64,000 nucleotides of DNA from Dictyostelium discoideum (Eukaryota), in the NCBI GenBank assembly GCA_000004695.1, contig CM000151.3, forward strand, positions 2,880,001 to 2,944,000, read 5' to 3'. The notes beneath the pieces were generated by a model, which saw only the letters and a program-made list of their open reading frames with translations, had not been told where the DNA came from and did not search any database. The position numbers and the translations under genes are program-made. Shown here in pieces: positions 3,010-39,492 of this stretch (its first letter is position 1; every line of letters starts with the position of its first letter).

Positions 3010-3067
<58 letters not shown>

Positions 3068-3823: not shown

Positions 3824-3913
<90 letters not shown>

Positions 3914-4697: not shown

Positions 4698-5858
4698 ATG
4701 TTTAAATCTTTTAATGGATTAGAATTAAAAAGTTCAGAGAATGAAGGTCGTTATTTAATAGCAACTCGTGATATTCAAATTGGAGAAGATTTATTAAAAT
4801 GTAAATCATATTTTGCAGTTACATCAGAAACTTTAAAAACAACATCATGTTTTAATTGTATTAAACAATTACCATCAGTTATTAAATTATCATTAAAATG
4901 TAATCAATGTAATGAAATTTGGTATTGTAATGAACAATGTAAAAATGAAAATATTAATAAACATCAACATTATGAATGTAAATTTTATAAAAAATTAAAA
5001 TCACCAAAATTAAAAGTTTATCCAAATTTTGATATTGAAACATTTACAGAAATTAGAATGATCGTTGGTTTGTTATCAAGATATTATCAAGATATTTTAT
5101 TAAATAATAAATTTATTGAACAACAATTAAATAACAACAATAATAATAATAATGATAATGAACAATTAACAAATACATTAGATGATGTTTTTGATTTAGT
5201 AGAAAATCAAGTTACAGAAGAATCAAATCCAGCAGCAAAAGAAAGAATTGATTCAATCGTTGAATTTATAAGTGAATTGTTTAATTTAGTATTATTAGGG
5301 TCAACAACAACAAAATCAATAATTAATAATGATGATAAAATTGAAATGATTAGGAAAATTAATGAAAAAAGTAGATCAATTATACATAAAACTAGATGTA
5401 ATCAATTTGGAATTTGGACAAAGAATGATAAGTGTATTGGTGTTGCAGTATCACCAAGTAGTAGTTATTTTAATCATTCTTGTATACCAAATTGTACAGA
5501 TGTTAGAGATGGTAGTAATATGACATTTAAATCATTATATCCAATTAAAAAGGGTGACCAATTGACAATATCTTATATTGAATTAGATCAACCAATACAA
5601 GATAGAAAAGATGAATTAAAGTATGGTTATTACTTTGATTGTATTTGTCCAAGATGTAATGGTGATTCAAATTCAATTGATTCAATGGATAATTGGATTT
5701 CAAAGTTTTATTGTTCTCAAAAGAAATGTACAGGTTTATATTATTCAAAACCAATGATACCAATTTTAAATACATTAACTTCAAATCATGAAATTCAATT
5801 ATCTTGTTCAAATTGTAATAATATTAATATAGTTACACCTTCTTTTTTTAATAAATAA
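4698..5858 (+). CDS. SET and MYND domain (SMYD-type) lysine methyltransferase, copy B, 386 aa; tandem paralog of 3211..4452
   Basis: Same architecture and the same N-terminus 'MFKSF(D/N)GL' as copy A. 'NHSCIPNC' and 'CICPRCN' are present. Lies about 250 bp downstream of copy A in the same orientation. Confidence 0.85.
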   Translation: MFKSFNGLELKSSENEGRYLIATRDIQIGEDLLKCKSYFAVTSETLKTTSCFNCIKQLPSVIKLSLKCNQCNEIWYCNEQCKNENINKHQHYECKFYKKLKSPKLKVYPNFDIETFTEIRMIVGLLSRYYQDILLNNKFIEQQLNNNNNNNNDNEQLTNTLDDVFDLVENQVTEESNPAAKERIDSIVEFISELFNLVLLGSTTTKSIINNDDKIEMIRKINEKSRSIIHKTRCNQFGIWTKNDKCIGVAVSPSSSYFNHSCIPNCTDVRDGSNMTFKSLYPIKKGDQLTISYIELDQPIQDRKDELKYGYYFDCICPRCNGDSNSIDSMDNWISKFYCSQKKCTGLYYSKPMIPILNTLTSNHEIQLSCSNCNNINIVTPSFFNK

Positions 5859-6385
5859 ATAAATAATTATTTTAATTTTCACTCTTTTTTTAAATTTTAT
5901 TATTATTATTAAGCTTGTTATAATTTATTTATTTATTCTTTTTAGGAAAAAAAAAAAAAAAAAAAAAAAAATAGTTTCTATTTGTTTTAAAATTAAAAGA
6001 TGAAAAGAATATATTAAACATTAATACTTTTCCATTTTATATAAAAATGGAAATTTTTTTTTTAATTAACACTCTTTTCAATTTTAATATATCAAACAAA
6101 TGAGTAAATAATTGAGGTATCATTTAATTTAAAAAAAAAAAAACAAGTAAATTGTTTGGAGATATTATAAAAAAAAAAGATTAAATAATAATAATTTTTA
6201 AAATCTTTAATATTTTTAAAAAATTTATTAATTTATTTTTATTTAATGTAAAATAACAATAAATTTTTTTTTTTAAAAATTTTTAAATATTTATTATGTT
6301 TGTTATAAATATTTTATGTTTCATTATTATTTTTTTTTATTTTTTATTTTAAATTTTTATTTTTTATTTTTTTTTTTTATTATTA

Positions 6386-6678
6386 CTAATTTTCTAATTG
6401 TACATCACAATTATCTCTACATTTTTGCATTAGTACAACGCATTTTGACCATTCAGTTTTACAAAATTCTCTATTATCATCAACACAATCACTATAACAA
6501 TCACCATTTATTCCATTTGATGATATTATCATTAAATAAACCACTAAAAAAATACAAAAAAAGAGAGTTAATTTCTAAAAGATTAAAATTTGTTTTTTAA
6601 AAAAAAAATATTTTATTGTTAATAAAAAATATGTATAAATAAATAAAAAAATTGTTAAAAAAAATTTTATTTTACCAT
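6386..6678 (-). CDS. Secreted 6-Cys mini-protein A, 63 aa (signal peptide plus C-x3-C-x7-C-x6-C-x6-C-x3-C)
   Basis: Exon 1 is only the ATG (6676..6678), followed directly by a GTAAAA donor. Acceptor 'cttttag' precedes exon 2 (6386..6574, stop included). Protein: MKLTLFFCIFLVVYLMIISSNGINGDCYSDCVDDNREFCKTEWSKCVVLMQKCRDNCDVQLEN. Without the splice the ORF has no signal peptide and falls below the ORF-track cutoff. Confidence 0.5.
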
Positions 6679-7020
6679 TATTCTATTTTTATTTTGTTTC
6701 AATAATTAGATTTTATAAATTAAAAAAAAAAAAAAAAAAAAAAAAGTTAAAACCCTTGTCAAATTTAAAAATCTTTTTTTAAATTTTTGTTTTTATTTTA
6801 AAATAAAAAAAAAAAAAAAAAAATATTAAAAAACAAAAAAAAAAAAAAAAATAATAGTAATTAATGGGTGGTATTAATAAAGTTTTTTTCATATAATTTC
6901 ATTAATATTTATACCAAAAACACCCACAAAAAAGGAGATCTTATTAATTATTACCATTTTTTGAAATTATATACATAATTACCCCCAACAAAAAAAAAAA
7001 AAAAATAATTATTTCTTTTT

Positions 7021-7056
<36 letters not shown>

Positions 7057-7232
7057 CTTTTTTATTTATTTTTAAATTTGATTAAAAAAAAAAAAAAACA
7101 TATTATTACATAAAAAATTTAATTATTATTTTTTTAAATTTATATTTATTTTTAATTCATTGATATGTTTTAAAATTTTCATTTATTATTATAATTATTA
7201 TAATTGATATTATTATTATTTTTAAAATTTAT

Positions 7233-7424
7233 TTATTTTTGTTCAATACCAAATTCAATATTACAACTTTCTTGGCATTTACCAACAACTACATCACAAA
7301 GAAATTGATCCTTTCCACAGTATCTAGTATTCTTTTTGAAGCAATTTGCATAACATTCATTCACATTACCAAGGGAAAAACTTATTGTTATTATAATAAT
7401 AATAATTACAATCAAGATATTCAT
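7233..7424 (-). CDS. Secreted 6-Cys mini-protein B, 63 aa; paralog of 6386..6678
   Basis: ORF in track: MNILIVIIIIIITISFSLGNVNECYANCFKKNTRYCGKDQFLCDVVVGKCQESCNIEFGIEQK. The Cys spacing is identical to peptide A (gaps 3,7,6,6,3) and there is an N-terminal hydrophobic signal. Confidence 0.55.
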   Translation of the reverse strand: MNILIVIIIIIITISFSLGNVNECYANCFKKNTRYCGKDQFLCDVVVGKCQESCNIEFGIEQK

Positions 7425-9593: not shown

Positions 9594-10082
9594 TAAAGAT
9601 TAAATTTAAATCTAAAAACTGGGTGTTATTTTATTTGTCAGTTGTTACTTTATCTTATTATATGTGGGAAAAAATGTCTCCCGTGATGATTTTTATCGTT
9701 TACAAGCAAAACTAGTATTAACTATTTTTTGTAAAACCTCAAAGATGAACAATCAAGTTTTTTTTTTTTTTGTAGTGCACTCAAAATGGGAAACAATTTA
9801 TAAAAAAAATTTGTTTAGAAAAACAATTAAAAAAAAATAAAAAAAATCATAAATTAATAACAAATAAAAAAAAATGATAAAAAAAAAAGGGGTTAAAAAT
9901 AGAATTAATTCTTTTTTTTTTCATTATTTATTATAATAAATCAATATTGATTATTTTATTTTTTTTATTTTTGAAAATCAAAAAAAAAAAAAAGAAAAAA
10001 AAGATACCAAAATGACAAATTTGTCCGAGTCAATATCAAAATATATTTTACAAACTAAAAAAAATCATTTTTTATCCAATTT

Positions 10083-10188
10083 TAACAGATCCAAAACAAA
10101 ATAACTATAGGTGTATAATTGAACCTGAATTTTATTCTGAATTTTAGGTTTAATTAAACCTCTACTATTATTTTGTTTTGTATCTGTT
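10083..10188. repeat. ~105-bp hairpin element: ~25-nt terminal inverted repeats plus an internal perfect palindrome
   Basis: Left arm 'ttttaacagatccaaaacaaaataa'. The reverse complement of the right arm 'ttattttgttttgtatctgttaaaa' matches it with one mismatch. An internal perfect palindrome 'ggtttaattaaacc' and near-repeated 'ctgaatttta' lie in between. Confidence 0.5.
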
Positions 10189-10720
10189 AAAAATGGAAAA
10201 AAAATGAATATTTGAGTTTCTAAAATATATCTTTGAATTTCTCCTTTTAATCTAGATTTGATTTTTTTTTTTTTTTTTTTCCTTTTCAGAATTAATTCTT
10301 TCTACTTCACTTTAATAATAAATTTAAAAACATTAAAATTTAATTATTATACAATTATTAAAAAAAAAAAAAAAAAAAAAAATTACCTTTTTAAAACCCA
10401 TTGAAATTGTTGCAGTGATTATATAATGCTTGATATGGTTGAAATGGATTGGTCCATCCATTTCCTGTTGACTGGTTGTTGAGGTTTGATCGATTAAAAA
10501 AAAAAAAAAAATATGATTTAGTCAATCAAATAACAAAGAAAAATGATTAAAGTGAATAAAAAAAAAAAAAAAAGTTAAATAATTACCTATAAAAATTAAC
10601 AGCGGGTCTGTCAATAATGGTAATGTTCAGATCTGAATTCAATTTAATTTTTTTATTTTTTTTAATTTTATTTTTTTTTTTTTTTTTTATTTCAATTTTT
10701 TTTAATTTTTTTTTTTTTTT

Positions 10721-10768
<48 letters not shown>

Positions 10769-10794
10769 CAAAAAACTACCAAATTTCAAACAAA

Positions 10795-11352
10795 ATGATA
10801 TACAACATATATATATTTAATAAAGACGGAACATGTATATATTATGAAGATTGGAATAAAAAAAAACAGTCTCAAAATCAATCAGAGGATCAAAAATTAT
10901 TGTTTGGTATGCTTTATTCCTTAAAAGCATTTATTACTTCATCATCACCAAAAAAGTATGTTTTTTTTTTTTTACTCCTATTTATATTTACATTTATAAA
11001 AAAAAAAAAAATACCACAAATTCTGGTATAAAAAAAATTAATTATAATGACTAATAATCTTTTTTTTTTTTTTTTTCCTTTTAGAATTGACGATAAAACA
11101 GGATTTCATTGTTATAAAACATCAACTTATAAATTACATTATTATGAAACATTATCATGTATTAAATTTATAATAATGTCTGACCCAAATGTCCCTGACC
11201 TTAGAGATGATTTAAAAAAGATATACAGTCAAATTTTTGTAGAATATGTTATAAAGAATCCAATCTATAAACATGGTACAACAGTAAAATGTGATACTTT
11301 CATTAATCAGTTAAATTTATATTTAAAACAAATGCCTTCTTTTTCAAGTTAA
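10795..11352 (+). CDS. trappc1: TRAPP complex subunit 1 (Bet5/TRAPPC1), 2 exons: 10795..10955 and 11085..11352
   Basis: Exon 1 'MIYNIYIFNKDGTCIYYEDWNKKK..LFGMLYSLKAFITSSSPKK' matches human TRAPPC1 '[38 protein letters not shown]'. Exon 2 'IDDKTGFHCYKTSTYKLHYYETLSCIKFIIMSDPN..LKKIYSQIFVEYVIKNP' matches '..FQTSRYKLHYYETPTGIKVVMNTD..ALYVELVVKNP'. Donor AA|GTATGT; acceptor ttttag|A; phase 2. Confidence 0.9.
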
Positions 11353-11832
11353 AAAAAAGAAGAAAAAAAAAGAAAAAAAAAAAAAAGATTAACAGGTTTC
11401 AATAAAATGTAATATAATATATTTCACCATTTATAATAAAAATTATAAAGTAAATTAATAAATCTAGGGACCTTAATTCTAAATCTAATAAATATTTAAT
11501 TAACAATAAAAAAAAAAAAAAAATAATAATAATAATAATCATTTAATTAAATTTTAAACTATTTATAAATAATAATAAAATAATGTAATATATTTAGTTT
11601 TTAAATATAAAAATTATTTATTTAAAAATAAAATAAAATAAAATAAAAATTATTTAAAATCTATTTCAATTGGAGTATACGAAAAACTATAATGTAATAA
11701 TATCGATATTATTACATGTATTTATTTTTTTTTATTTTTTTTTTTTATAAAAATAATGTCAATTTGACATAATAAATATAAAGTATAAATAAATTTAAGC
11801 TGTGTTTGGGTTGTTGTTATTATCATTGATCT

Positions 11833-11922
<90 letters not shown>

Positions 11923-11949
11923 TTAAATGTTAGTAAATTGGATGATATT

Positions 11950-13160
11950 GTTTTTTAAAAAAAAAAAAAAAAGAAAATGATAATTACTTTGTAGAAGAAA
12001 TCACTAACCAAACCAGTACCCATATTCTTAATTGCAGTAGCAGAGTATTTCTATAATAATAATAGTAATAATAAAGAAAAATTAATTTTATTAGTTCCAG
12101 GTTTTTTTTTTTTTTTTTTTTTACCATACAAAAAAAAATAATAATTATAATAATAATAATAAAACTTACTTGGAATTTACTTGGAATCTTATTTAATGAA
12201 ACACAATTTTTTCCACTTTTATCAACACCAGCCCATGCTAAAAAGAATTTTAATTGACAACCTACACCTTCATCACATCTCATATCATCGAATTTGGTTG
12301 CACATTGATTATCGATACAGGAATCACAATTTTTACAAATTGAAGTATCTCTATCACCATCCCAAACTGCATCCACAATGGCACCATTATCAAGTTGGAA
12401 AATGATAGTGAAATAGCTGACAAATGTTCTTGTACTAAATTCAAAGATATGTTTTGGTGGCAAAATGATTGGTTCCAAAACTGTTGAATTATAATTTTCT
12501 ACTTTTTGGTAGGTTGCTGTGGTTATGTCTGTCACGTTTTGGCATGCTTTATCTGTACTAACAACGACTGAACCATTTGTAAGAGTTTCTTGACATGGTA
12601 CATCAACAAGTCTACTTGTGAAAGATGTTACATTTTTAGAATATGGAATCTCTGCCCAAACTGTATAACCTTCTACTTCTCTATTTTTAAAAACGTTTCT
12701 ATTTTTATTTGTTTCATTTAAATATTGAATAAGTCCATTTGCTTTATGTATTTTAAAACAAATAAATAAAATTAGTATATATTAAATTATAAAAAATTTT
12801 AAAATTAATTTTTTATTTTTTTCAATACTTACCACTGAATTTAATAGTTGAAAATTCGTCGACTCTTGGATGAAAATCAGCAGTTGCTTCGAAACCAGAT
12901 TGATTATTTCTAATGTGGAATCTAATGAATGACCAATCATATCTATTGTATCTGTGGTCTGTCCATGAGGAATTTGATAAATCTTTTGTATTCATAAAAT
13001 TTTGATCTCCTATATTAACGACATTTGGTGAACCAAGGAGCATTGTACCATTTTCAACGTACCCAAGTTGTAAATCTGGTCCTCTAACAATCTGACCATT
13101 TATTAAATTTATGAAAAATATTATTTGAATTATTATGAAAATTGAATATATGAATTTCAT
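11950..13160 (-). CDS. Secreted, N-glycosylation-rich, Cys-containing protein of unknown family. Exons 12833..13160 and 12170..12741, plus a short terminal exon near 11950..12050 whose acceptor is unresolved.
   Basis: ATG at 13158-13160. Signal peptide '[22 protein letters not shown]'. Exon 1 donor G|GTAAGT (phase 1); acceptor cataaag|CA. Exon 2 is open through '..[35 protein letters not shown]' to the donor CAA|GTAAGT, with a second in-register GTAAAT donor 12 nt upstream. Many N-x-S/T sequons. Confidence 0.55.
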
Positions 13161-14717: not shown

Positions 14718-15038
14718 TTAATCAAAATAACCTAAATATCTCAAGAAAAGAGCCCTGTCTCCTACTTTTTTAATTAAATCTTTCCATTCATATTCAGTGA
14801 TTGAAAAAGCAGTTTCGAAATTTGAGATTGAATTTTCTTCAAATACTTTGGCAATTGCAGTTCTTTGAGTAGGAGAAAGTGGGATATTAATAAACCAAGA
14901 TAAAAAACTGTCATTTAATTCAGGATTATCAACAATCTCAACTCTTGTCAATTTGGCAGAGTTTGTTGGATCAATTTTAATTTTAATATTTTCAGGTTCA
15001 GTTTCTTGAGACTCATCCATTGTTTCATCAATTTCATT

Positions 15039-15073
<35 letters not shown>

Positions 15074-16968
15074 GCTGTTGTTGTTGTTGTTTTTGTTGTT
15101 CATCTTCTGAAGTAGAAGTAGTAGTGGTGGTAGTAGTTGTAGTAGTTGAGGTAGTAATAGCATCTTCATTTGAGAAATCATTATTGTCAATATTCATTTG
15201 ATTTTCAACTAAAACTTCATCTTCTTTTTCTTGTTTTAGAGTTGATTGTTTGTAAATGAATAAAATTGAAGTTCTTTTTTCAACCTCTAAATTTTCACTT
15301 CTGTTAATGAATGATACTGGATCATTGGTTGAACATCTAATGCTTGCATTTTCATTGTCATCTGAGGAATTAATATGAATTGAACTATGATTTCCATTTG
15401 ACATTAGCACAGATTCTAATACATAGGTTAAATCATCACCACCACTACCATCATCATTTTGAATTTCAAATGAATTACCAATTTTAATGAATTTTGGGAA
15501 ATCGATAGGTTTGAAAGTTGGTTCACCATTTTTAATTCTATTTACAGAAACTAAAAGATGAGATGGTGAGCTAATTAAAACTGTTTTACGTTGAACTTGT
15601 TTATTACAATTTTTACATTGCTCAATTGAATTATTTTGAGAGTAGAGTGTGTTGGCAATATTCTCTTCGATATTATTTGAATCAATGTTTACAGTAAAGT
15701 CCAAAATAAATTGTTGAAGATTTGGTTTTATTAATTTCTTACAAACATTACATATATGTTGACAACTACCAGTGAGAGGAGTGAATATGGATGATGATAT
15801 TTTTTTAATTGATTGTAAAAGTAAAGCTAAAATCTTTGAAGGTGATAAGAAGGATGAAGATGGAGTTGAATTTAATAATTCCATTAATTCATCATTTGCT
15901 TCAATGAATTCCTTAAATAAAGTATCGACTATGAATGGTTCTTTTAATTTTTTACTTGAAATCGATTTGAAATGTTGTAACTCTGTATATAAAGAGAAAG
16001 AGAATTTAACATCTTCAATATTTAATAAATCAATTAAATTGAATCTTATCCATTCTAATAAACTCGTAGCAAAGATTGGTATTGACGATGATGATGATGA
16101 TGTTTTGATAGTATGATCCTTTAATATTAACATAGTTTTAATTAATGATTCATCCTCTTCTTTATCATTTCCATCATTACTAATAACTTTAACATTTTTA
16201 GTTAGATATTCATTATTGTATGATACTAATTCTTTAAGTTTCAAATTTTGATCAGCTTTTTTAAACATTGGATTAATGGATCTATTATCTTGAGATTGTG
16301 AAGGGGTTGAAGCTCTTGGATTGAAAAATTTCTTTTTAGTAGTGCCATTTAAATCATCAATTGTTAATTCTTTGAAAATGATTAAACCACCACCACCACC
16401 ACTACCAAATCTACTATTTTTATCATTTGTAACTTCACCAATTTCATCCAATTGAATGTGTAAAACTGTTAGAGTTTCTTGAAGTGTACCCATAAATGTT
16501 GCATAATAACTTGAAGTCATACTTGGTAAAACAAAAGTAAAGATTGATAAATTGGTTGAAGGTTCTTTGATATCACGTAATTGGAATTTATTAATTAAAT
16601 GTAAAAGTGGTAAATCTGGTTGAATGGATCTTGCAATTCTCTTTGAATCTTCAGAAGATGCTTTTTGAATGATTTTACCTAAATAATCTTTCCAAAGAAT
16701 TGAACGTTCTCGAATATCAAATTCACAATCCTTTAAGATACTCTCTGAAATTGATTTAAATTGAATTAAATAGTCATTGTTTGGTTGAACTGGGTCAGGA
16801 ATAATTGAACTATAATAATATCTAAATCCAAGGTAACTATTTATAAATATATCACATAGTGATAATACTTGATTTACATTAATAACTGGTAATAAATCTT
16901 TAATAGCAAAATCTAATTTAAATGATTCAAAAACATCATCACTCATTAATTCAATATTATTATTATTA

Positions 16969-17066
<98 letters not shown>

Positions 17067-20000
17067 TTTAAAATTTGAAAATTGTAATTGATTTAAATTT
17101 AAAGTTTTAATAAAATCTAAATTTTCTTGTTTTGAAATTAAAAGTAAAATTTGAATTAAATATCTACCAAATGATTCTAATTGATCATTATTTAATTTTG
17201 ATTTACATCTTGAACGTAATTTAATCTTTATAGTTTCTTCTATTTCATTATTAAAACCTGTAAATGTTTCAATCTTTTCAATTAATTCATTTAGTTCTTT
17301 AATAAATTCTGGTTCAACAGTTGGTTTTTTAATTTTATCTAATAATTTTTCATTAACTTTAGTAACTACTTCAGTTAAACCATAATCTTCATCGTCATCG
17401 TCATCATCATTATCATTATCAACTTTTTGTTCTTGTGATTTTTTAATGGTTGGTTGTTTTTTGAATTTTAAATCTGTTTTAAATCTAATTAATTGATTTC
17501 TAATTACTTTACCATAGAGATATTGTAAGATGATTGAATTTTGAATTAATGACCAATCGATAGAACCTACAAATTTAGATTTATCAAGTACAAAGTATTT
17601 AGAGATCCAAGATGAATAATAATGATAGAAATCTTCAGGTTTAAAGTTTGCACCAATTAATAGATTATCACTACCAATTGTTGATGGAATATCACCAATA
17701 TCGATTTCATTATTAGTTCTAGTGAAACTCTCAATGATTTCAAGGATATCTTCGGGTAAATTGCCTTTATCCATTGAGAGTTGTAAAAGTTTACTTTGAG
17801 TATTTGCTAACCATTGATCGATTACACGAACGATACAACCAGGTTGAGTATCATGATAAAACATTTGACTGAGTCGTGATTTTTTTTCAATTGATGGTAT
17901 GATCGCTTCTGAACGTAATGCATTTGGACAAATTTCAATCTCTATATTTTTAATGATAACTGGCCAAATATTAAGCAAATCTTCAAAAGCTTTCTTTAAT
18001 GGAGCAACTGATTGAATGGTTTCATATTTATTGGTAATTAAATATTTAATACATTTTGTAACTGATTGGTCAATGAAATCTGGTGGTAATAAATTTGCAG
18101 TGAAACGATTAAAAGTATCAAGGAATTGAATCAATACTTTAAAGTGACTTGAGATACAAAGTTTGTTAATTTCATTGATAAAGGTTTTAATAATAAGGAA
18201 TTGTTGTTGTTCAGTTGCAGTAACCAATGTTTGAATGGTGAAATGAGGAATTATTAATGAGCTATAATTTAAAGTATATAGAGTTCTAAGCTTTAACAAT
18301 GAATCAAATTGTGGACTTGATGCAACAGTTTTTGCAAGGAAACGATTTTTAGAGGCGTTGGCATCATTTTTAACGGCAGCAAAAATTTGATTTAATCTAA
18401 CTTCATATGCATGTGATAGTTGTGCATTTGGGAAATTATCTAAAAATACACCTTGATTATGGAATGACTCTGACCAAATTGCCATTGTATAATTTGAAAT
18501 ATACATCCATGGATCTAATAATAAACCTTTAAGATCAGGATTTAATTCAATCTCTGTTATTGAAACCAATGCTCTATTTAATACATAATCGGATGGATTT
18601 GCAGAATCTTGAAAATTAATGAAATGACTTGCTCTATAATCTTGGAATGTATATTTTCTCATTGAGGCAGTGAATGAAATTACAGACCAAGTTGAAGCTA
18701 CAATTGAAAAGAAATCCAAACTATTACCATAATAAGTTTCATATTTTGCATTGCAATCAACCAATTGACCACCTCTTGAACCTGGGAAATATTTACCTAA
18801 ATTAAACATAAAAGGATCAACAGCACCAACAATAGCTTTTGAAAATTTACTAAGATGAGTATTTTCAGAACCAATTGAAATTGCAATGAAATTTATAATA
18901 ACATTTGCAACCTTTAATTGACTTTGATCAATTGAGGAGAGAATTTGATCGATTATGAAATTTCTATCGAATTTTCTTGTTAATATCTTTTTATAATGTT
19001 CTAAATAATTGAGTAAACCGAGTTGTTGTTGAATTACAGCATCATCAATGATAGCAATGATAAAGTTTATGAATTTTTGATTCTCTTGAGTTTTTAAACC
19101 ATTACCATTTGAAATATATTGATAAGATAAAATGAATAAAATGATTCTAATTAAACCTTTTTGTTTTGGAATTTTTGAATTAATTTCAAACAATTGTTTC
19201 AAAGAATTTAAATCTGCTAATTCAATGAATTGTTTTATATGAATATAGGTATCATTCTCTAATTTATAATGATCATCATAAACAAATGGTAAATGAAAAG
19301 TTTGATCTTTTGTAACTAATAAATTGATTTGATATTGTGATAAACCAATTGAATTCAATATCACTGGTGATTGGAATAAATCTAGGATCTTCTTTTCTTG
19401 AATGATTCTTGTGAACAAATAAACTTGATAAATGGTTGATTGTAAAATGGTTGAATCATTCTTATTATTTGATAGAATCATTCTTAATACATTTTGAATA
19501 TCTTTATTATTGATTAAACCATAGGTTGTCTCTAAATCATTATGATTTAATAAATCTGCAAAATGTTCCAAGAATATACAAGACAAGGATATCAATGATA
19601 CTCTTTCGAAAATGTTTACATTGATATCATTATCATCTTCATCAATTTCAAATGTTGAGAATTTACCATACTTTATAAAGAATTCTGATATTAAAGATAT
19701 GATTTGATTTAATTTTGCTTTAGATTGAAATTGTTCAAAAGAAATATGATAAAGAATATCAATTAATGGTTGATTTGGTAACAATTGTTTTCTCAATAAA
19801 TCCAATCCTAATTTGAGTTTATGATTTTGTGGAATCAATACTGATAATTGTTCAATTGTTTCATTGTTAATATAAGTTAATGGACCACTATGAATAGTTT
19901 TTAATAAAGATTTATTAATTAAGCTACCTTGATTAATCATATCAAATAATTGTAATTTCTTTTCTTCTCTAATGATACCATTATTATTGGTTATAATATC

Positions 20001-22518
20001 TTTAATTATAATACAACTCCAACCAATTGGTATTGAATTTATCAATGAATTTGGTATGGTATAATCATTATTTACAATCTTTAAGAAAGAATAAAGATTA
20101 TCATTATTTAATAGAATTAATGGTTTGATGATTTCTAAAATTAAACTTTTTGATGGTTTTGGTTCAATTTTCATTTCATTATCAATAAGATTGAAATAGA
20201 TATCCATTACTTTCAATAAATCTAAACAACGGAAATTTGGTAATGCACCAATTAAAATTTTCTTATTTTCATCTGGTAATTCGGAATTGTTGAATAAAAT
20301 CTCTACGAATAATTGATAGATTGAATGAATGTATGCTAATAATTCTAAAACTTCAATTTCATTTGGATCTGTTGTAATAAAGATTTCATCAACATTAATT
20401 CTATTGAAAAGATCTCTAACTATTTTAACCCATACAATGATTTCCTTATTTTGATCATCACCTTGTTTAATATTAAATGAAATTTGATCAATTTCTTGTG
20501 AAAGTAATTCAATTGTTAAATATAAAAATTTAGTTTTAATTAATTTAATATCATAATAATTAATATTTTTCTTTTCATTATTGTTTTGATTGTTATTGTT
20601 ATTGTTACTATTATTATTATTATTTTTAAAACCATCATTATAATAATCATCAAAAAATTCATCATCGTCATCATTATCATCATCATCATCTTGATTGTTT
20701 TTAAAAGTAATTAATATCATTTCTTTACATCTTTGTAATGCATATTCTTTATATGTTAATTGAAGTAATGGTGAGATGATATTCTTTAGGAAATCGATTG
20801 TTTCAACTTTAAATTCTTTAATGATCCAATATTGAATTATTTTCATTGAATTGGTAAATACTTTTTCATTAATTTTTTTAGTTTTATTTGTTGACTGATC
20901 AATATCATCTTCTTGATTGACGATTGTATAGGGTAATAATGAATCCAAGATTGAAATGAATAAATCTTTTGTCTCTAAACTTATACCCATAGTTCTAACA
21001 ACGAAATCATGTTTATATTGTTCGAAAAGATTGTCACTACCTGCAATGAAATGAATTAACTCTTCAATTGGATGATTGATAATATAGGAATAAATTTCCC
21101 CGTATACGACCTTGGGTTGTTTACTTTTAGATTCCAATATGATATTATCGAAAATTAAACTAAATTGACTTTCAAAATAATCATATAATGGTAGAGATGA
21201 TGGAATAGTTGTAATCTTTGGTAAAGATAAATGAATTGGTTCTAATCTTCTTTCAATACCAATATTCTCTGATAAATTATATTGTAATTTTGAAGTTTTA
21301 ATGAAAAGTTTAATTAAATTATAATTTTCTAAACTTGAATTTAAAATCATTCCATCAGTTGTTGATTCTCTAAGATTTCTTTTCTTTTTATTTCTATTAT
21401 TATTGTTATTATTATTTGAAACTTTTTCAAAATCATCTCTATAATTTTTTATAATTTGTAAAATTGTTGGAATTGAATTATAATTACAAATTGTTTTAAT
21501 AATATTTGAAGTTACAGGATAAAGATAGTTTGTAATTGAAGATTTAATAGCATCAATGAATGCACTTTGTTCTTTACCTGATAGAATACGTTGACAAATA
21601 TTTACTAAAATTCTTTGGAAAATCTTTTGATCTAACCAATGATCAGTGAAATTTTGAATGACAATTTGATACCATTCTGGATTTGTAGTGAAAATTTCAT
21701 TTAAAACCTCTTGTCTAATTGAAGCATCTTTATAGAATTGATGAATTTGAACTCTATTATTATTATTATTATTATTGTTATTGTTATTATTGTTGTTATT
21801 ATTATTTGGTGTTCTAATTGGTATCATTGGTAACTGTTTACAAATTATATCTTTTGAAATGGTTTTCAATTGATTCTTAACCATATCTCTTAGAATATTA
21901 TTAATTGGTTTTTGATTCTCTCTAAAATCATAATGATAACTTGTATTATTAAATATATTGAAATAATCATTTGAAAAACCATTGGTATTAGTTGTTGTAT
22001 CAACACCACAACTTGCAGCAATCCAATCTCTAATATCTTCTTCAATGATAGTTTCATAATGTTTATCAACTTGATCCTTTTCAAATTTAATACCTAACGA
22101 ATCGATATAAGTGAATTCGATTTCATTTAAAAAGATTGAATTTAATTTTAATGATTGTTGAGATAATGAGTATTCTGGTGGGTAATGATAAATTGTGATC
22201 AATGATTTGGATTCATTCATATCCAATAATAATTCAAATATATAATTCACTTGATTTTGATTACAATTGATCATATCTGCAATTACAATTAATATTCTTT
22301 CTTGTTTTGAATTTTTAAATGATTCAATAATCTTTGAACATTCTAAACTTGATTGAATTGAATTTAAATGAATGATTTTAATGAATTTTCCATCAATTGG
22401 TTTTTTATTACTACCACGATTAATCTTTGAAGGTGATCTATCAATATTGAATATTTCTAATGATTCACTTAAATATTCAAAATCGTCAAAATCACTTTCA
22501 CTTCCACCATTATTATTA

Positions 22519-22553
<35 letters not shown>

Positions 22554-25500
22554 TACACTATCTAACATTATTTGATCGAGATTTTCATTATCACCATCAT
22601 CATCTTTTGAAACCAATTTCTTATTTATAATTGATCTAACTAAATTATCACCTAAAATTTCAAGTAAAACTTCACCATCTTTAAAGGAAGTTAATGACAA
22701 AGAAGTTCTAGTGAAAATTACCCATTTATTTGAGATATATTCATTCATTGAATATTTAGTTGTAAATAAATTCTTTAAAAATCTAACTATACTAAAATGT
22801 TCTTGATTGATAAAATATTCCTTTAAATAATTAATTGGATAAATTGAATCTTTAATACGAATGATTGATTCTGGTTTTGCAATTTGTAATAATTTAAAAT
22901 TGAATAATGTTTGTGGTTCATTTTTAATTGAAGTTGCTGTCGATGTTGGTGAACTTGATAATAATTTATAAAATTCTCTCTTTTTAGAATTGGTAGTTGT
23001 TGAAACCATATCATAATTTTTAAAGAATTGATAAATTAAACTTGAACAAGTTTCAGTTGAAGAAAATCCAGCTAATAATGATTTTTTACTTGCTTTATTA
23101 TGAAGTGTATCAACGAAATGATTGGAGTACTTCACAAGGTTATTAAATAGATCGGTACTTGATTGATGCTTACTAATGAATTCTTGAGTTAATAAATCAA
23201 TTGATACTGTATACTTTTCGAATCTATTTAACCAAGGTAATTGAGTATTCTTTAATCTTGACATTGGCATATGAATGATAACTTTAAAGTCTGGATGAAC
23301 TGTACAAAATACTGAATGAGTACCAAAACTAATATTTGCAACCATTTGTAAACGATCACGATGTTCTGAAGAAGGTGTTAAAATAAAGTATCTATTGAAA
23401 ACTTCATAGAAACATGAATCAATCTTTTCACTATTGACCAATACAACGGTACCACCAGTTTCCATAATTGATTTAATAGTTGAAACACATTCTACCAATG
23501 ATTCCTCTGAACTATCATTTTCAAAACCACCAACTCTAACAATTGTTAAATTTTCAATACCAATCTCTTTTAGAATTGAAATGGATGATTCATTCTCTGA
23601 AGGATCAACGATCATCATATAACGGAAAGTTAATGAACTTGGATCTTGATTTGGTTTGATAACTTCAGCTAATGAACTCTTTATGTTTGCGATTGTATTA
23701 TCTATTGTGTAAAGTGATGCTGGTGGATCAACGTTTTGCTCTCTAAAGAATAATTGAGCCAACTGAATAAAATCTTGATTATTAATACCTTTGAAATTTC
23801 TTTCCAATGAATCCAATAATGCCAATGGGAAAGGTCTTTCAAGGTCAAGTTCTCTTTTAAGATGTCTTAAAAAGAAACAATAATCTCTTTGATGGAATAG
23901 ATTCTCTTTAGTATTGATTGAAAATTCATTAACTCTTTTGTAAGCTCTACATAGGGCATCACGAATTTTCTGTTCTTGAGCATCGAGATCATTTCTATTA
24001 TTATAGAGACAACCTACAACCAATGCTTTTTCATCATCCTCTGTCATTTTATCTGGATGAATTAAAATCATCATACGATTGGTTTTGGCAGCATCTAAAA
24101 TCTTATTTGATAGAATTACAATACCAACATTATCTTTGGCTTCACCAGTTTTATTTCCAACCTTATCTAAATAGTCATGTAATACTTTCATTGGTGAATT
24201 ATTTTCATCGACTAAACCAGCTTCATCAAGGAAAACCACGGATTTATATTTCTCTGCTTTCATAATTTTTTCACGATTAATTGCTTGTTCAAATTTAACT
24301 TGAATTTCAATATCTGAACTATGTTCAGTACATTGATATCTGAATGGTTCTGTCATTGGAATATGAGCCAATGGTGAATTTGGTTTTTGTTTTTGTGTTG
24401 GTGAATTAATATTATCCAAAACGATTGTAAATGAAATTGTTTTTGAACAACCTGGTGGACCAACAACCAATAAGGGTACATTACAATTGATCGATACGAT
24501 AGTACAGAAAACATTTAACATCAATGATTCAGTTTTAGCAATACCATCTGGTAATTGAATGAAATCACGACACAATGATGAATACTTTTTATGGAATATA
24601 TAAGTGAATGGATTTCTACCACCAGCATTATCTAAATTATTGCCACGTTGATCATTATAATAATTTGAAAATATTTCTAATATACCTTGTCTATTTTTAC
24701 CAGGAATCATTCTAATGATATAAGTTAAATACATTGAAATGATTAATGATATCCAATGTCTATCTTCAAAATTTAATTCTCTAATTTCTCCACAATTTAC
24801 TAATGATTTACCACATTGATCTTCCATAAAGAAATTATAGAGATCGATTGCTCTCATGATATCTCTAATACTAACATGAGTACGATTTTGTTTAGTTTGA
24901 CGTAAATAATCTTGACCCAATATGATACACTCTTGAAGTTGATTGGAATGATGTGGTTGCATTTTAGTTTTCTTTTTAAATAATGTTGACAAGAATGAAC
25001 GTTCACTATCATCAAATTCACCAAAATCAAAATATAATTGTTCCATTGATTGTGGTGTTTCTTTTACAATGAAATCTTGATTACCTGATGCTGAAATTTG
25101 ACCAGTGAAATCGATTGAATCATTGGTTGATGATTTCATCTTTGGATTCATTGCGCCAATGATACGAATATTTGATGATGCCAATTGTTTACCATCCAAT
25201 GTACCATCAATGAATAACTCTGTAATGATTGCACAAGTATCGATAGGAGCAGTATTAAATTCATCAATGAAAATTACGAAAATCAATGATGAATTAATGT
25301 TTAATAAATCTTTTGCTGTATTTTCCAATTCTTTCATCTTTTTTAAGAATAAATCACTTGTATACTTTTCATGCATAATTAATCTTTGGAAAAGACGTTT
25401 AAATTTAATGGAGCCAATATCTTTGATTGCTTGTTCCATAGTTTCTTTTGAATCAATAGTTCTTGTATTCTTTTTTAAAGAATCTAATAATGAACCTTCA

Positions 25501-28500
25501 CCAATTTGAATTAATGGATTAACTAGGACCTTTAGAATGAATTGTCTTATATCTTGAAATAATAAATTTGAAACCTCTGCATTGATATCTGAAATTTTTG
25601 AAGCAACTTGAACCATTTCAGCTATTTCAGGATCAAATAGCTCTTCAGTGAATTCTTTTGGGAATTGTTTCATTTTTGCATTTAAAAATTGTTTTAAATC
25701 AAATAGAATATCTGGTAATTCATCAATCTTTGCATTGATGATAGCAGCATAGAAAAAGAAACTAAAACTTTTACCAGTACCTGTATCACCTTTTAAAATA
25801 ATAGCTCTTTGATTTTTAATCTTTTCATGAATGATTAAAAGACGAAGTGCAAACTCTGGTGTCAAACAATATCCATATTGTTTGGTTAAATCTGATACGA
25901 TAAAAGTACGTGAAACAATACCAAATGATTGAGAGATGGTAGCATAAAACATTGAAGTATTGGCCGATGCAGTCTCTAGCGTATGTAATGATGGTACTTT
26001 GTCATATAGATCTGTTTTCTCTCTAAAATCAATGAAATCAATTTGAGTTTGTTCAAATGGTCTATTTGCATCATCGGTTATCACTGAAATTGATCTTGAG
26101 ATAATTAATGGTGGATTACGCCAAAGTGTTTTCACTGAACATATAATTGGATCTGCCAATTTAACACATTCAACAACAAAGTATTTATAGAGAATCTCTG
26201 GTGTAACTTGTAATTTCATTCCCATTTGAGCCAAATATTTATAGTAATTGATATATTTATCCAAAAATAATAGTCTATCATTTAAATAGGCAAAGAAATT
26301 CTTTTGGCATTGTTTATAACGATTATCACGTAAGAATGGAATTTGAGCACCATAAATTGAAACTACATGATCATAATAAACATTACCAGGTATAACTTGA
26401 TTGTTTGTAATGATTGTTGGATTCGTTGGAAAAGCACCACCATTTCCTCCTAAATAAGACATACATTTCATTTCTTGAATACCATAATTCCATGCTAATT
26501 CATAATTTATCACCTGAGAAATATTGTAAAGTAATGATAATGCATCTTCTGGTTTATCATTTGTTGTTTCTTTTAATTGTGTACCAATCTCTAAAAAGAT
26601 ATGAATATTTAAATGTTCACTTATATTTATAATTTTACCATTATCATAAATGTAACCATAGGTAATTAATGGATAAATAAATGTATAAAATTCTAAATAA
26701 TTGCAATAAGGTGAAAGATTTATATGAAGTAAAACACCTCTAATTGTATTGTTATTACTTTGTTGTTTTTTCAATAATAATGAATTTATTAAACCATAGA
26801 AATCTGAATAATTTGTACCAGGTCTAATTGATAAACGATATGCAATGAATTGAGATTGTTCCACTTGTTTCTTTTTTAAATCAATATATAGAGTTTTTCC
26901 AGTACCAAATTCACCAGATAATAAATTCAATTCACCTACCCCATACTTTGAATTTGTTTTTAACCAATATTGTTTTAATTGTTGATATGTACAAGCTAAT
27001 GGTTCTTCCCAACGTGGTAAAAACTCTGTGAAATTATCATTTTGACTAAATGATATAATGTAAACTCTTGCTAATTTTGATAAAGTTTGATTTGAAAAAT
27101 GTTCTCCAAACCAAGATAATAATGACTCTTTCTTTGTTGGTAATCCGATTAAAAAGAATACTCTATCAACTACATTCTCTACTAAATAAATGAAATCATC
27201 AAATTCATTTCCAAATTTACTACCATAGAAAACTTGACTTGGATGTGGGAATACCATTAAATTCATTTGAGTTATAAGTAAATCTAAATTCTTTTTATTT
27301 TGAACATGATAAAATTGTGGACCTCTATCATCACTACTATCTTCAATATCATCTTGATCTTGAAAAGTTTCATCAAATAAATTAAATAGCTCCATAATGA
27401 AATCTTTAGTTGATAAATTTCTATTTAATTTACCTTGATCTTGAGCGTTAACAATTGTTTTAAAAATTGTATCATTATTTAATTGATAAACTTTTGAATA
27501 ACAATATTTAATATATGATGAAACAATTGAAACTAATTCTTTATTTCTATTATTATTATTGTTGTTGTTGTTGTTGTTGATAATTATTTCATCCTCTTGA
27601 ATTAAGAAATTTTGAACCTTTGTAAATAATGATGAAATACCTTGATTTCTTAATAATCTAATTCTTTTTGAAAATGAATTAATTAAACCTTTCCATTCTT
27701 TAATTTTTTCAATTAATTCAATGTTATATTTTTTAATATCATCCATTAAGTTTGGTGTAATTTTCAACTCTATAAATTTATCTAAAAATTCGTAGTGAAA
27801 CATTTTTGTTGAAAGTATTGTGTGACTCTTATAAATTGAATGAAGTTCATCATATAATTTTTGAAATTCATCAACGGTAGCACGTTGAGCTTCTTTTACC
27901 TTTGCCAATTTCAAACCACGAATATAATCATCCAATGTTTCAGAGGAATATTCTATACCATTTACTTTAATATGCCAAACTGATGTTGAACTACCAATAA
28001 CATTTGAACTAAAGATTGAATCTGTTAACATTTCTTTTAATCTTGGTAAAATGGTTGAAATACTATATGCACCACCTGCACTTGAATATAATGCTCTCAA
28101 TTGAGGCATATTATCTTGAAGGAAACGAATCTTTTGATTAATATCCTCCATATCATGATGACGGAATAATTCTTTCATAACTGAACAAAAATTACCAAAT
28201 TTATAAGATTTTTGTGATGTTGGCACTGTTGGTGGTGGTGGTGAGGTTGCTGTTATGTTTTGTGAGGAATCATTCATTAATGAATCTTTATATGATTGAT
28301 TTTCAATTACTATTGGTTCAACAATACTAAAAGTTAAAACAGCATAATCAATTAAATTACTTGAGAAAGCATCATTTAAATTTGTACTAATTAATCTATT
28401 TCTTTCTGTGAAGTCCTTATTATCTTTAAAAGTTGAGTAGAATTCAATCAATTCCATTTGAATTACACTAAAGAATGGTATTTGATGATATTGTAATTGA

Positions 28501-29876
28501 CCTATGGATTTTTCTATATCTTTTTTAATTTTGATTGAATCATCATATTTAACCTCTGTACTTAGTTTTACTCTGAGTAATGCCTTTTCAATTGATTGTT
28601 TTGCTTCATCGAGATCTTCGATTTTAATGATTTTGAAACGATCAAAGAAATTAAACAATGCATTGATATTTGATTCAATACCAAAGATAGAGATTGCCTC
28701 CTCTATAAACTTTTTAAATTGTTCAACCTTGATGTGAGTTTGAACCTTTTTATTATCTACTGGTGTTTTAAAATTACACAATAAATCTATTTCACATCTT
28801 AAATCAATATCTTTACTTGAGAGTTTCTTAAACATATCACAATTCAACTTGATAGATTGAGTATCCATTTTCACAAGAGAGTCAAAGAAATTTTGTGATT
28901 CTTGACAAACAGCATTTATATCTTTGGTGGTATCATTTTTTACAAAGTGACTGAAGACCACAAAAAAGAATTTAGAGTTTTTGACAATGAAATATAACAT
29001 AAATTTAATGGATTCATCATTTAATGGTGTTTTGAAATTATCAATCTTTGTTTGACGAATATGTTTAAGATAACTTTTCACAGTATCTTTTGGTGAGCAA
29101 TGAGTACCTTCACTCACTAATTTATTGAAACCAAATTCTTGATTTAAGTAATTCTCTAATTTTTTATATCTTTCAATTCCATTTGAATATTCTCTAAATT
29201 CTTTAATAAGTTGATCTGAATCCATCAAACCTTGGTGGTTGAAATAAAGCTCTAAATTTACTTTTAAAGTATCATAATCTTTTTTATACTTTACAATTTC
29301 CTTAGAATACTTATTAGCTATCTCTATAAATTTTTCTTTAATCTATTATGTTAAATTTTAATAAAAAAAAAAAATTAATTGGATTTCGCACATATACTCT
29401 GAAAAAAAAAAAAAAAAACTTACAATCTCTTTAGTTTGAATAAATTCAACCATTTGTTCGTCCCATTCCAAAGTTTTTAAATTATTAAAACGATAAATAA
29501 GATTTTGAGCGTAAGTAGTATCACTGTTTTTAGATACCTGATCCAATGCATTCTTTAGGCAATAATTTGCTAAAATAGAAAGGGAAAGAGGTAGACTTGT
29601 GGCTCTTAAAGAGAAAAAGTTGAAAAAGTTTTGATGTGGTGAAGCTTTCTTTGTAATTTCAAAAATGATATGTTCGCATAATTTATAGAATTGTGAATAA
29701 TTTTTTTTTAACTTTTCTCTTTCGAATTCAAAAGAACTCTCAATATTGGCCAAATCTGAAATTAATGGTTCATAGTAATAAGACAATGAGGTTGGAGCAA
29801 ATTCAAGGTATTGATGGTCTGGGTGCAATATTGAAAATGTAGCAAACAAATCCAAAACTCTATTTATCTTCTCCAT
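14718..29876 (-). CDS. Giant (~5,025 aa) multi-P-loop AAA+-type NTPase; candidate RNF213/mysterin-, midasin- or dynein-class. 2 exons: 29424..29876 and 14718..29342.
   Basis: 14.6-kb uninterrupted ORF (track 14718..29228) that stays in frame upstream to the acceptor 'ataatag|ATT' at 29342. A 77-nt intron with a GTAAGT donor (29418-29423) separates it from an upstream exon whose first in-frame ATG is at 29874-29876. Walker A sites: 'GEFGTGKT' (~26900), 'GDTGTGKS' (~25775) and 'GPPGCSKT' (~24450). Walker B: 'IFVIFIDEFN' and 'VVFLDEAG'. 'IIGAMNP' resembles the dynein/midasin '..MNP' motif. C-terminal poly-Gln and poly-Thr, then 'CQHICNVCKK..CKNCNKQ' Cys pairs. Confidence 0.7.
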
Positions 29877-30019
29877 TGCATATCTTTGACAAACATTTGC
29901 ATTTTTACCATTGAGTTCAAACAAACTTATCAAAAAATCTTTTTTACCTCTTTTGTATATTTGATTGTTAAAATCCTCTGGCTGAGCACCTAAAAATTCT
30001 AATGACCTAAATAAATTAA

Positions 30020-30078
30020 TAAGAAGAAGGAGAAGAAGAAGAAGGAGAAGAAGAAGAAGAAAAAAAAAGAATTAGTAA
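30020..30078. repeat. (GAAGAA/GGAGAA)n purine microsatellite
   Basis: 'aagaagaaggagaagaagaagaaggagaagaagaagaagaaaaaaaaag'. It is a rare GC-containing simple repeat and lies between two minus-strand genes, in the 5' flank of the giant gene. Confidence 0.8.
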
Positions 30079-30120
30079 TATTACTAAAAATATAAACATT
30101 TATATATATATATCATATTG

Positions 30121-31917
<1,797 letters not shown>

Positions 31918-31974
31918 ATTAGTGTGCAAATTTTTTACTTTTTTTTTTTTTTTTCTTTTTTTTTTTTTTTTTCT

Positions 31975-37687: not shown

Positions 37688-39460
37688 ATGTTAAAAAAAG
37701 TTTTTAAATTAAAAAATTTTGTTGAAAATAAAAATTTTAAATTTAATTCCCTTTTGATATTAAACAATAACAATAATAATTTCTATAACAATAAAAATAA
37801 TAATAGTTTTAATAAAAGATTTTATTCAACAAATAATTTAATAATGTCAGTACCATCATCAGTAATAGAGAATCATCTTGTACCAAAGGAGATTCCAGTT
37901 TATCGTTTAAATGCTCGTGAATCATTCAATCTATTAACAGAGAAAGAACAACTCTATGCCCATCATATTAGTGTTGCCTGTTGGTGGGGTTCAAAAATTT
38001 GTCTTGGTCAAACATCTATTGAAAGTGGTCCAATCTTTAATCTCTTTCAAAATCTTTTCTCAATTCAAAATTTAAAATCAACTGTTGTTCCAAATATTGT
38101 TTCTGAAGAAGAATATTCTGATTTATTATCATATGCTGCAACTTTTTATGGTAATATGGGTAATTACTTAAGTTTTGGTGATAGTAAATTTATTGTAAAG
38201 TATATTTTTTTTTTTTTTAAAATAAAATAAAAAAAAATAATAATAGTTTATTAATTTTTTTATTTTTATTTATTTTTATATAGCCAAGAATTTCAAAAGA
38301 AAAATTACAATTAATTATTAATAAAGTTAATGATAATAAAGTCAATGAATATTGGGGTAAATGTAGTGAATTAATGTATTCATTAGATAAACAAGTAAGA
38401 GAATTGGGTATTGATGGTAATGGTATTTCAACCTATTATTCACCAAATATTACAAAGGTTGAAATTGAAAAAGTACAAAAGTTTATGGACTCAAAGAGCA
38501 TTTCACCATATAATACTCGTTTATTCAAAGTTTCAGAGAATAACTATAACCTTTTGATTGCTAGTGCTTCAACTTCAACTCCAACTGTCTCTCATCAATT
38601 CGATGGTTACACCATTAATATCGTCTATGGTGATTGGAATAAGAACTTAACCAAAGTAGTAGATAATCTTAAATTGGCTTTACCATACGCTGCAAATGAA
38701 AATCAAACAAATATGCTCAAGAAATATATTGATTCTTTCTATAGTGGTTCAATTGATGATCATAAAGATAGTCAAAGATGGTGGATTAAAGATATTTCTC
38801 CGTAAGTTTTTTTTTTATTTTTATTTTTTTTATTTTTTTTTTTTTAGTTTTATTTTTTATTGTTAATCAAAATTAATTAATTTACTAATTTATTTATTTA
38901 TTTTTATTTAGAGCTGTTGAAACTAATATTGGTTTCATTGAAAGTTATCGTGATCCATATGGTGTAAGAGGTGAATGGGAAGGTTTCGTTTCAATGGTTA
39001 ACAAAGAAATGAGTTTGAAATTTGGAAAATTAACAGATAATGCCACTACTTTCTTATCAAAATTACCATGGGACAAGAGCTTTGAAAAAGAAAAATTCAA
39101 CAAACCAGATTTTACTTCTTTAGAAGTTTTAACATTTGCTACAACTGGTATTCCAGCTGGTATTAATTTAAGTAATTGTAAGGTTTATTTATTTTTTTTT
39201 TTTAATATTAATTTTTTTTTTTTTTAAAAATTATTTCTAACTTTTTTTTTTTTTTTTTTGTTTTCCATTTTTTAAATTGAAACCAAATAGATGATGATAT
39301 TCGTCAAACTGAAGGTTTCAAGAATGTATCATTAGGTAATGTTATTGCCGCAAGAAAGGATGAGTATGTTACTTTTATCCAAGAAAGTGATCAAAAATTA
39401 TTCAATGAATTATCAACTGAAGCATTCGAATTACAAGTTGGCATTCATGAAGTAAGTTTC

Positions 39461-39492
<32 letters not shown>

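Follow-up and report, generated by a model that had tools for sequence, protein, structure and literature searches.

A giant AAA protein gene of Dictyostelium discoideum as a probable RNF213-superfamily member without RING and RZ fingers

Introduction

We propose, with a probability of about 0.6, that a giant reading frame in a 64-kb window of Dictyostelium discoideum AX4 chromosome 2 (contig CM000151.3, positions 2,880,001 to 2,944,000; the window is this whole stretch, and coordinates below count from its first nucleotide) belongs to one real, four-exon gene whose product, a cytosolic protein of 5,636 amino acids, falls within the RNF213 (mysterin) superfamily. The AX4 genome already contains the gene, so what is proposed is a new annotation of a known locus. 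RNF213 is the main susceptibility gene for moyamoya disease; it also acts in cell-autonomous immunity, where it attaches ubiquitin to bacterial lipopolysaccharide. The case is carried by an ATPase core that finds only RNF213 among proteins of known structure, and by a downstream helical block that probably shares the scaffold of the RNF213 E3 module. The protein ends in a degenerate ubiquitin-specific protease (USP) fold.

Results and discussion

The ATPase core matches RNF213

An earlier reading of the window, made from the sequence only, had noted three Walker A sites about 400 residues apart, the Walker B motifs FIDEFN and FLDEAG, and an IIGAMNP motif. All of these are present, with 375 and 443 residues separating the successive Walker A sites (Table 1). 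Pfam scans of the three P-loop regions returned weak generic matches to AAA_7 (29 bits against a cutoff of 25.8, on the first P-loop), AAA_5 and AAA. When residues 1451-3008 were compared by phmmer with all PDB sequences, the best match was human RNF213 (E=6.2e-48 over 787 residues). At E<=1 the search returned nine distinct sequences, all of them RNF213 chains with E-values of 1e-39 to 1e-48, and no dynein or midasin chain, in agreement with the earlier view that the protein fits neither of those families. In the second P-loop module, the alignment with human RNF213 takes in Walker B and what lies downstream of it, starting at human residue 2491; in the third, Walker A and B are paired with human 'PLFLVGKPGSSKS' and 'VVVLDEVGL'. 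A separate phmmer search of PDB with residues 801-2176 matched RNF213 only at the Walker B of the second module.

The distribution of Walker motifs was then compared with the published description of RNF213. There, AAA1 has neither Walker motif, AAA2 forms a proper nucleotide site but is without Walker B or sensor I, and AAA3 and AAA4 have complete Walker A and B motifs (PMC7311170); HHpred run on RNF213 itself detects only AAA2-4 and the RING (PMC7311170). Of the six AAA units that form the ring of RNF213, AAA1, AAA5 and AAA6 are degenerate. In the Dictyostelium protein the Walker B position that follows the first P-loop reads hhhH[FI]xhSPY in 13/13 aligned family members, with no acidic residue. 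Compared motif by motif, the P-loop pattern is that of RNF213: a predicted nucleotide-binding AAA2 without Walker B, followed by a complete AAA3 and AAA4. Because this pattern matches the published description, the likeliest identity of the three P-loops is AAA2-4 within a larger ring. The earlier account of three tandem P-loop modules was right about the P-loops, but does not hold as a description of a three-module ATPase.

A multi-copy family in dictyostelids

Relatives were collected by an exhaustive HMMER search with residues 3866-4848 against 1.84 billion representatives, which yielded 19 clusters, mostly of proteins of 4,200-5,800 amino acids. Three P-loops are shared by 12 of the 13 giants, with GDTG[VT]GK[TS] and an invariant GPPGCSKT, the latter unchanged in every family member in which the region is present. 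Every one of the ten members whose source was looked up is dictyostelid (from Acytostelium, Heterostelium with two paralogues, Polysphondylium, Tieghemostelium, Synstelium and D. cf. discoideum), and these ten carry the names 'hypothetical protein' or 'AAA+ ATPase domain-containing protein'. The gene thus belongs to a multi-copy family in which each member of looked-up source comes from a dictyostelid. Conservation runs along the whole length of the protein past residue 590.

A word-indexed protein search, which performs poorly on low-complexity, A+T-biased protein, returned at least 13 fragments for a query running from AAA4 to the hinge and at least three for the AAA3-4 core; the C-terminal 707 amino acids gave no match in this search, which is ill-suited to low-complexity protein. 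It recovered a D. dimigraforme fragment together with AAA-core fragments of other eukaryotes, including the sponge Ephydatia, and one fragment (P0002) matches RNF213 across AAA3-AAA5 (E=5e-64). None of the non-dictyostelid AAA-core fragments matches the helical block described below, so they provide no bridge to RNF213. Contig L001 of D. dimigraforme carries two family members head to tail (1-7240 and 9745-12923). The first of these, the counterpart of the gene studied here, has no USP-like domain but retains the SAM-like tail; its annotation is fragmented.

Two of the members P0039, P0031 and P0028/P0029/P0033/P0035 have unusual ends. An Acytostelium paralogue begins with a B-box-like Cys/His cluster, and the Synstelium model, in which genes are possibly fused, ends in a Cdc48-like AAA domain.

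A helical block resembling the RNF213 E3-module scaffold

In family alignments, residues ~4000-4735 form the best-conserved section of the C-terminal half. For residues 3997-4735, AlphaFold2 given an alignment of 15 family sequences produced an all-helical model (mean predicted local distance difference test score, pLDDT, 76.7; predicted template-modelling score 0.58). Searched against PDB with Foldseek, this model matched 9jwg_A, a focused model of the human RNF213 E3 module, with E=3.3e-6 and probability 1.00, and the next match had E=0.18. The authors of the RNF213 structure described its E3-back, E3-shell, E3-core and CTD subdomains as being without PDB counterparts, and because of this the match is specific. 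Homology between residues 3997-4735 and the scaffold of the RNF213 E3 module is, on the strength of the modelled fold, probable.

The zinc-binding elements of RNF213 are missing from this block. Scans with regular expressions found no RING consensus in this protein or in any family member, and Pfam found none; nor was an RZ-type CHCC finger found at the E3-like position of any family member by regular expression, or as a Pfam RZ match at E<=0.1. Outside the USP fingers the protein contains no Cys/His cluster; in the E3-like region in particular there is none, and C-x-H...C-x-x-C was not found there. An RZ-like reading of CQHICNVC elsewhere in the protein was rejected, the spacing being wrong and the motif belonging to the USP fingers.

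These absences bear on whether the protein could still be an active RNF213-type ligase that uses a non-canonical nucleophile in place of the RZ finger. Two lone cysteines come into question, C4292 in 'DCGMxYR' (18738-18764) and C4567 in 'MEGGC' (17916-17945). Both are conserved in most family members, both fall in low-confidence loops of the model, and they might be catalytic or merely structural. In RNF213 the RZ (ZF2) finger, which is essential for ligase activity, consists of a CHCC zinc site, a Cys nucleophile on a loop and a nearby His. The RING is not needed in vitro, and the catalytic Cys of RNF213, too, is carried by a flexible loop and is not a zinc ligand; in the Dictyostelium protein the E3-module-like scaffold is probably retained. 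However, mutation of the zinc-binding CHCC residues abolishes RNF213 activity and no such site exists here, two family members are without these cysteines, and no E2-docking CTD was identified when the C-terminal 2,453 amino acids were compared with PDB by sequence. We consider an active ligase of this kind unlikely.

A degenerate USP-fold domain and a SAM-like tail

When the C-termini of the family were aligned, conserved motifs appeared in the order hHC(L/F)xNW(I/L)R(F/Y); PGxFLxxLLxxL; CxxC...CxxC; PQYLFIxIxR; tYxLHSVxCHED...YSI; and LLIYxK. As sequence patterns go, this is the order of a USP domain: Cys box, QQD-like helix, zinc-ribbon fingers and His box. The Pfam UCH profile (PF00443, cutoff 23.9) recognized two relatives, P0029 with 44.7 bits over profile positions 100-254 and P0035 with 40.3 bits over positions 32-220. 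A family profile compared with PDB found USP39 and USP28 as its best matches (E ~0.01), the family motif 'lhSvlc(s/H)ed' being aligned to 'LHAVLVHEG' of USP28. On its own the USP-like domain of the window gave no Pfam match. Scored against a hidden Markov model (HMM) made from eight other members, residues 5186-5461 reached 93 bits (E=1e-27), and the best of 1,000 shuffled sequences reached 6.9 bits.

The protein encoded in the window reads ATSLLEW where the family consensus is hHCLFNW, and YVLESVLMSNG where P0028, P0029 and P0035 have LHSVLCHED. By position and pattern, ATSLLEW would correspond to the USP Cys box. The whole protein contains 58 cysteines, and CxxC pairs occur in it only at 5293 and 5338; the Cys-pair segment that had been noticed near the C-terminus is present and corresponds to the zinc ribbon of this domain. 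In the family alignment, both pairs have an invariant second Cys (C123 and C171 of A1). Judged from these residues, the C-terminal domain is a USP fold with a zinc ribbon whose presumed catalytic Cys, oxyanion Asn and His have been lost.

An AAA-regulated deubiquitinase is a reading that must be set against the residues at this site. Beyond the presence of a USP fold at the C-terminus, it draws on P0028, P0029 and P0035, which keep 'HC(L/F)xNW' and the 'LHSVxCHED' that aligns with USP28, and of which P0029 and P0035 exceed the UCH threshold. These three are, among the ten full-length domains aligned, the only ones to retain both Cys and His. In the gene studied here, however, S5189, E5192 and S5410 replace Cys, Asn and His; the closest full-length relative, P0025, is likewise without the His, and the D. 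dimigraforme counterpart is without the whole domain. That this protein is itself an active deubiquitinase is very improbable.

Relatives conserve the tail beyond the USP-like domain, in a single copy or in two. Pfam SAM_1 was matched by the tail of one relative only, P0037, at E=0.025, below the cutoff. AlphaFold2 run without an alignment on residues 5077-5636 gave an unusable model (pLDDT 35), in which the tail formed five helices at low confidence. Several family members have two tandem SAM-like tails.

In direct Pfam scans of the flanks of the AAA region, neither exons 1-3 nor the N-terminal portion of exon 4 matched any family. To that extent the earlier statement that the flanks contain no recognizable domains was correct; comparison by family profile and by structure led to a different result for the C-terminal side.

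Comparison with known systems

Like RNF213, the protein is of giant size (~5,000-5,600 amino acids) and has the same order of modules, in which a long N-terminal region is followed by a dynein-like AAA core, a helical, probably E3-type scaffold and a C-terminal region, with direct sequence homology from AAA3 to AAA5. Unlike RNF213, it has neither the RING (human 3997-4035, inserted in E3-back) nor the RZ finger (human C4505/H4509/C4525/C4528, with catalytic C4516/H4537), shows no N-arm similarity and no detectable CBM20 (Pfam; phmmer with residues 801-2176), adds the USP-fold domain and SAM-like tail at its C-terminus, and occurs in Amoebozoa. RNF213 has been described as conserved in protochordates and vertebrates (PMC6400562, 2019) and in all vertebrates (PMC7311170). 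A full-text literature search, the coverage of which is incomplete, found no paper linking RNF213 to Amoebozoa, and an automated family assignment may already exist. Papers that name Dictyostelium as well as RNF213 are unrelated by title, and in the one examined the two terms stand in unconnected passages. By its AAA core, and probably by its scaffold, the protein is a member of the RNF213 superfamily; because two defining features, the RING and the RZ finger, are absent, it is not RNF213 in the strict sense. The previous likening to RNF213/mysterin-type giant AAA E3 ligases therefore holds for the core, for which PDB offered RNF213 alone, and is not supported for the ligase.

Two further proteins of ubiquitin biology invite comparison. 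USP39/Sad1 and other dead USPs share the USP fold, the zinc-ribbon 'fingers' and the substituted catalytic residues, with a weak match (E ~0.01), whereas here the domain is a C-terminal appendage of a giant AAA protein and some paralogues retain Cys and His. ZNFX1, which together with RNF213 defined the RZ finger, also couples a large NTPase to ubiquitin chemistry; its core, however, is an SF1 helicase rather than AAA, and the RZ finger it shares with RNF213 is absent from the Dictyostelium protein.

Dynein heavy chain and midasin (Rea1) resemble the protein in having several AAA units per polypeptide, P-loops of AAA_5/AAA_7 type and an 'xxNP' after Walker B, and it could be argued that the gene encodes a dynein-, midasin- or MoxR-type motor or remodeller whose likeness to RNF213 is superficial. 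The Pfam matches are indeed generic and dynein-related (AAA_7, AAA_5), and IIGAMNP is common to the clade. Against this, the PDB search that returned nine RNF213 chains gave no sequence match to either family, AAA1, the main ATPase of dynein, is not the principal P-loop, and the Pfam scan found neither the VWA/MIDAS domain that midasin has besides six AAA_5 units and a D/E-rich linker nor the signature of a microtubule-binding stalk, which dynein has between AAA4 and AAA5; the independent structural match of the modelled helical block also points to RNF213, in this case to its E3 module. Membership of the dynein or midasin family was rejected on the PDB and Pfam results, and we regard this explanation as scarcely credible.

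Gene structure

The span first given to the gene was 14718-29876, with a product of ~5,000 amino acids, and its 4,836-codon open frame was said to be beyond chance. The frame is there, free of stop codons at 14718..29228 on the minus strand. G+C across the window is 0.13-0.29; at ~25% G+C about 8.8% of random codons are stops, and the chance of 4,836 stop-free codons is ~1e-193, on which figure a chance open reading frame was rejected. The boundaries were revised to 14718..31917, with four exons. The Met at 29876, which had been taken as the initiator of a 151-codon upstream exon, lies inside exon 3: the frame is open upstream of it and reaches an AG acceptor at 30007, and translation is placed to start at 31917. 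The intron at 29343-29423, described as 77 nt, is real (GTAAGT...AG) but measures 81 nt.

Exons 1 and 2 join the downstream body in frame through canonical GT..AG introns with a G+C of 0.14-0.19, and the first ATG (31917) is preceded by a long A-rich leader. A tblastn alignment with a second family member, on D. dimigraforme contig L001, begins upstream of the 29876 Met and continues unbroken over the junction of exons 3 and 4. The end of exon 1 (PHRSMWYYIVHHG, followed by GTACAG) is similar to the end of the first exon of this D. dimigraforme gene (PHRGIWYFICNSE, followed by GTAAGT; E=2e-5), the two genes agree in the position and phase of intron 1, and the NCBI annotation of the D. dimigraforme contig likewise has a first exon of this kind joined to the giant body. 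Exon 2 showed no similarity to anything, including D. dimigraforme exon 2, in a Pfam scan and by pairwise comparison.

That the locus is decaying or mis-joined, and represents several genes or a pseudogene, is the least credible explanation of all: the long homopolymer runs, the degenerate USP site and the counterpart annotated in pieces would suit it, but it is opposed by the length of the stop-free frame, by full-length relatives of 4,200-5,800 amino acids with the same module order in several dictyostelid genera, and by conservation over the whole length past residue 590.

Exon 1 contains a 159-bp tandem duplication (31196-31921), the two copies of which match at 92% and encode a 53-residue repeat, and an AAT run that encodes ~65 consecutive Asn. 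Further runs of poly-Asn, poly-Gln and poly-Thr break up the protein at residues 1351, 3026, 3275, 3669, 4855, 5492 and 5514.

A putative ATP-gated scaffold

Two reports on RNF213 (bioRxiv 10.1101/2021.05.10.443411; PMC12075652) describe ATP binding to the AAA core as an allosteric activator of the E3 module. If the Dictyostelium protein behaves similarly, nucleotide at AAA3/AAA4 would alter the conformation of the C-terminal module, which would be unable to perform RZ-type transthiolation. The protein would then be an ATP-gated scaffold that binds or recruits ubiquitin, its pseudo-USP domain serving as a reader of ubiquitin or ubiquitylated targets and its SAM-like tail as an element for self-association or partner binding, with catalysis possibly supplied by family members that have an intact USP Cys/His site. 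This is the most economical reading because the AAA2-4 sites and probably the scaffold are conserved, but the known catalytic finger is missing and the USP site has lost its presumed catalytic residues, and the protein is probably such an ATP-gated ubiquitin-binding scaffold. Analogy with RNF213 is the one pointer to a possible part in cell-autonomous defence or in lipid-droplet biology.

Several points weigh against an RNF213-superfamily scaffold of this kind. The TM-scores of the match to 9jwg_A are low (0.31 and 0.21), and the link to the scaffold is a single chain, with no other RNF213 chain among the best 50 Foldseek matches. HMM and profile searches of the E3-like block against PDB gave no match at the level of sequence, and phmmer with the C-terminal 2,453 amino acids against PDB gave none. 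We infer AAA1, AAA5/6 and a closed six-unit ring, as we do the mechanism of the gene product; by sequence only AAA2-4 and part of AAA5 are visible. In the first 1,450 residues nothing was detected by Pfam or by phmmer against PDB. The SAM assignment of the tail is tentative and weak, and C4292 and C4567 could supply a catalytic activity that a non-catalytic scaffold leaves out of account.

A dictyostelid family that shares the RNF213 core and probably its scaffold but has another ubiquitin module suggests that AAA2-4 and the scaffold are ancient and that the RING and RZ finger are later additions. It also suggests that the machine was already tied to ubiquitin when the RZ finger had yet to arise. 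As a professional phagocyte for which infection models are established, Dictyostelium offers an experimental system. A broader proposal, which we put forward tentatively and consider possible but rather doubtful, is that dictyostelids possess an ancient, expanded RNF213-type family in which the AAA core and E3 scaffold are tied to a USP-type cysteine protease instead of RING/RZ. Paralogues with intact Cys and His would be ATP-regulated ubiquitin editors, either deubiquitinases or a new transthiolating class, and the present copy would be a ubiquitin-reading pseudo-enzyme. If this were true, the RNF213 architecture would predate the split between Amoebozoa and Opisthokonta, and the core function of RNF213 could be tested in a haploid, genetically tractable phagocyte.

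Table 1. Positions of the gene, its predicted modules and neighbouring genes in the 64-kb window
Feature	Position	Strand	Details
Whole gene	31917..14718	minus	four exons; spliced coding sequence 16,911 nt, 5,636 aa
Exon 1	30881..31917	minus	ATG 31917-31915; Asn-rich; ends ...PHRSMWYYIVHHG before GTACAG donor
Intron 1	30880..30791	minus	90 nt, GT..AG
Exon 2	30125..30790	minus	222 codons
Intron 2	30124..30007	minus	118 nt, GT..AG
Exon 3	29424..30006	minus	Met at 29876 internal, not initiator
Intron 3	29343..29423	minus	81 nt, GTAAGT...AG
Exon 4	14718..29342	minus	14,625 nt including stop codon; residues 763-5636
AAA2-type P-loop GEFGTGKT	26892..26915	minus	residues 1572-1579
AAA2 Walker B position GVLLHINLS	26712-26738	minus	without acidic residue
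AAA3-type module	25254..25790	minus	Walker A GDTGTGKS 1947-1954 (K1953); Walker B VIFIDEFN 2118-2125 (E2123)
IIGAMNP motif	25143-25163	minus	residue 2156, after AAA3 Walker B
AAA4-type module	24216..24461	minus	Walker A GPPGCSKT 2390-2397 (K2396); Walker B VVFLDEAG 2464-2471 (E2469)
Stretch with direct RNF213 sequence homology	23016..25376	minus	residues 2085-2871 against human 2491-3276 (phmmer)
Conserved all-helical block like RNF213 E3-module scaffold	17424..19640	minus	residues 3997-4735; no RING/RZ insert
Degenerate USP-fold (pseudo-deubiquitinase) domain, predicted	15213..16121	minus	residues ~5170-5472
Putative Cys box FATSLLEWIRF		minus	S5189 replaces catalytic Cys; E5192 replaces oxyanion Asn
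Zinc ribbon	C5293/C5296 + C5338/C5341	minus	all four Cys kept
PSHLLVSVNR motif and putative His box YVLESVLMSNG		minus	S5410 replaces catalytic His
SAM-like tail	14721..14987	minus	residues ~5548-5636, after poly-Thr and poly-Gln linkers
Second SET-domain gene	3211-4452	plus	
Peptidase M49 (DPP3-like) gene	37688-40307	plus	multi-exon
Small heat-shock protein hspF	41093-41794	minus	
Hybrid histidine kinase open reading frame	46565-51028	minus	1,487 aa; HisKA, HATPase_c, Response_reg
Pirin	60321-61691	plus	

Neighbouring genes

No second family member was found within the 64-kb window. Three adjacent open reading frames exactly match D. discoideum AX4 chromosome 2 proteins, namely a SET/MYND protein (DDB_G0273589), atg4 and hspF. 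The SET/MYND protein and atg4 (4698-5858 and 57474-58448) each have two GenBank protein accessions in AX4. Two accessions per neighbour fit a duplicated segment of chromosome 2, and the giant gene is therefore probably present twice in the AX4 genome.

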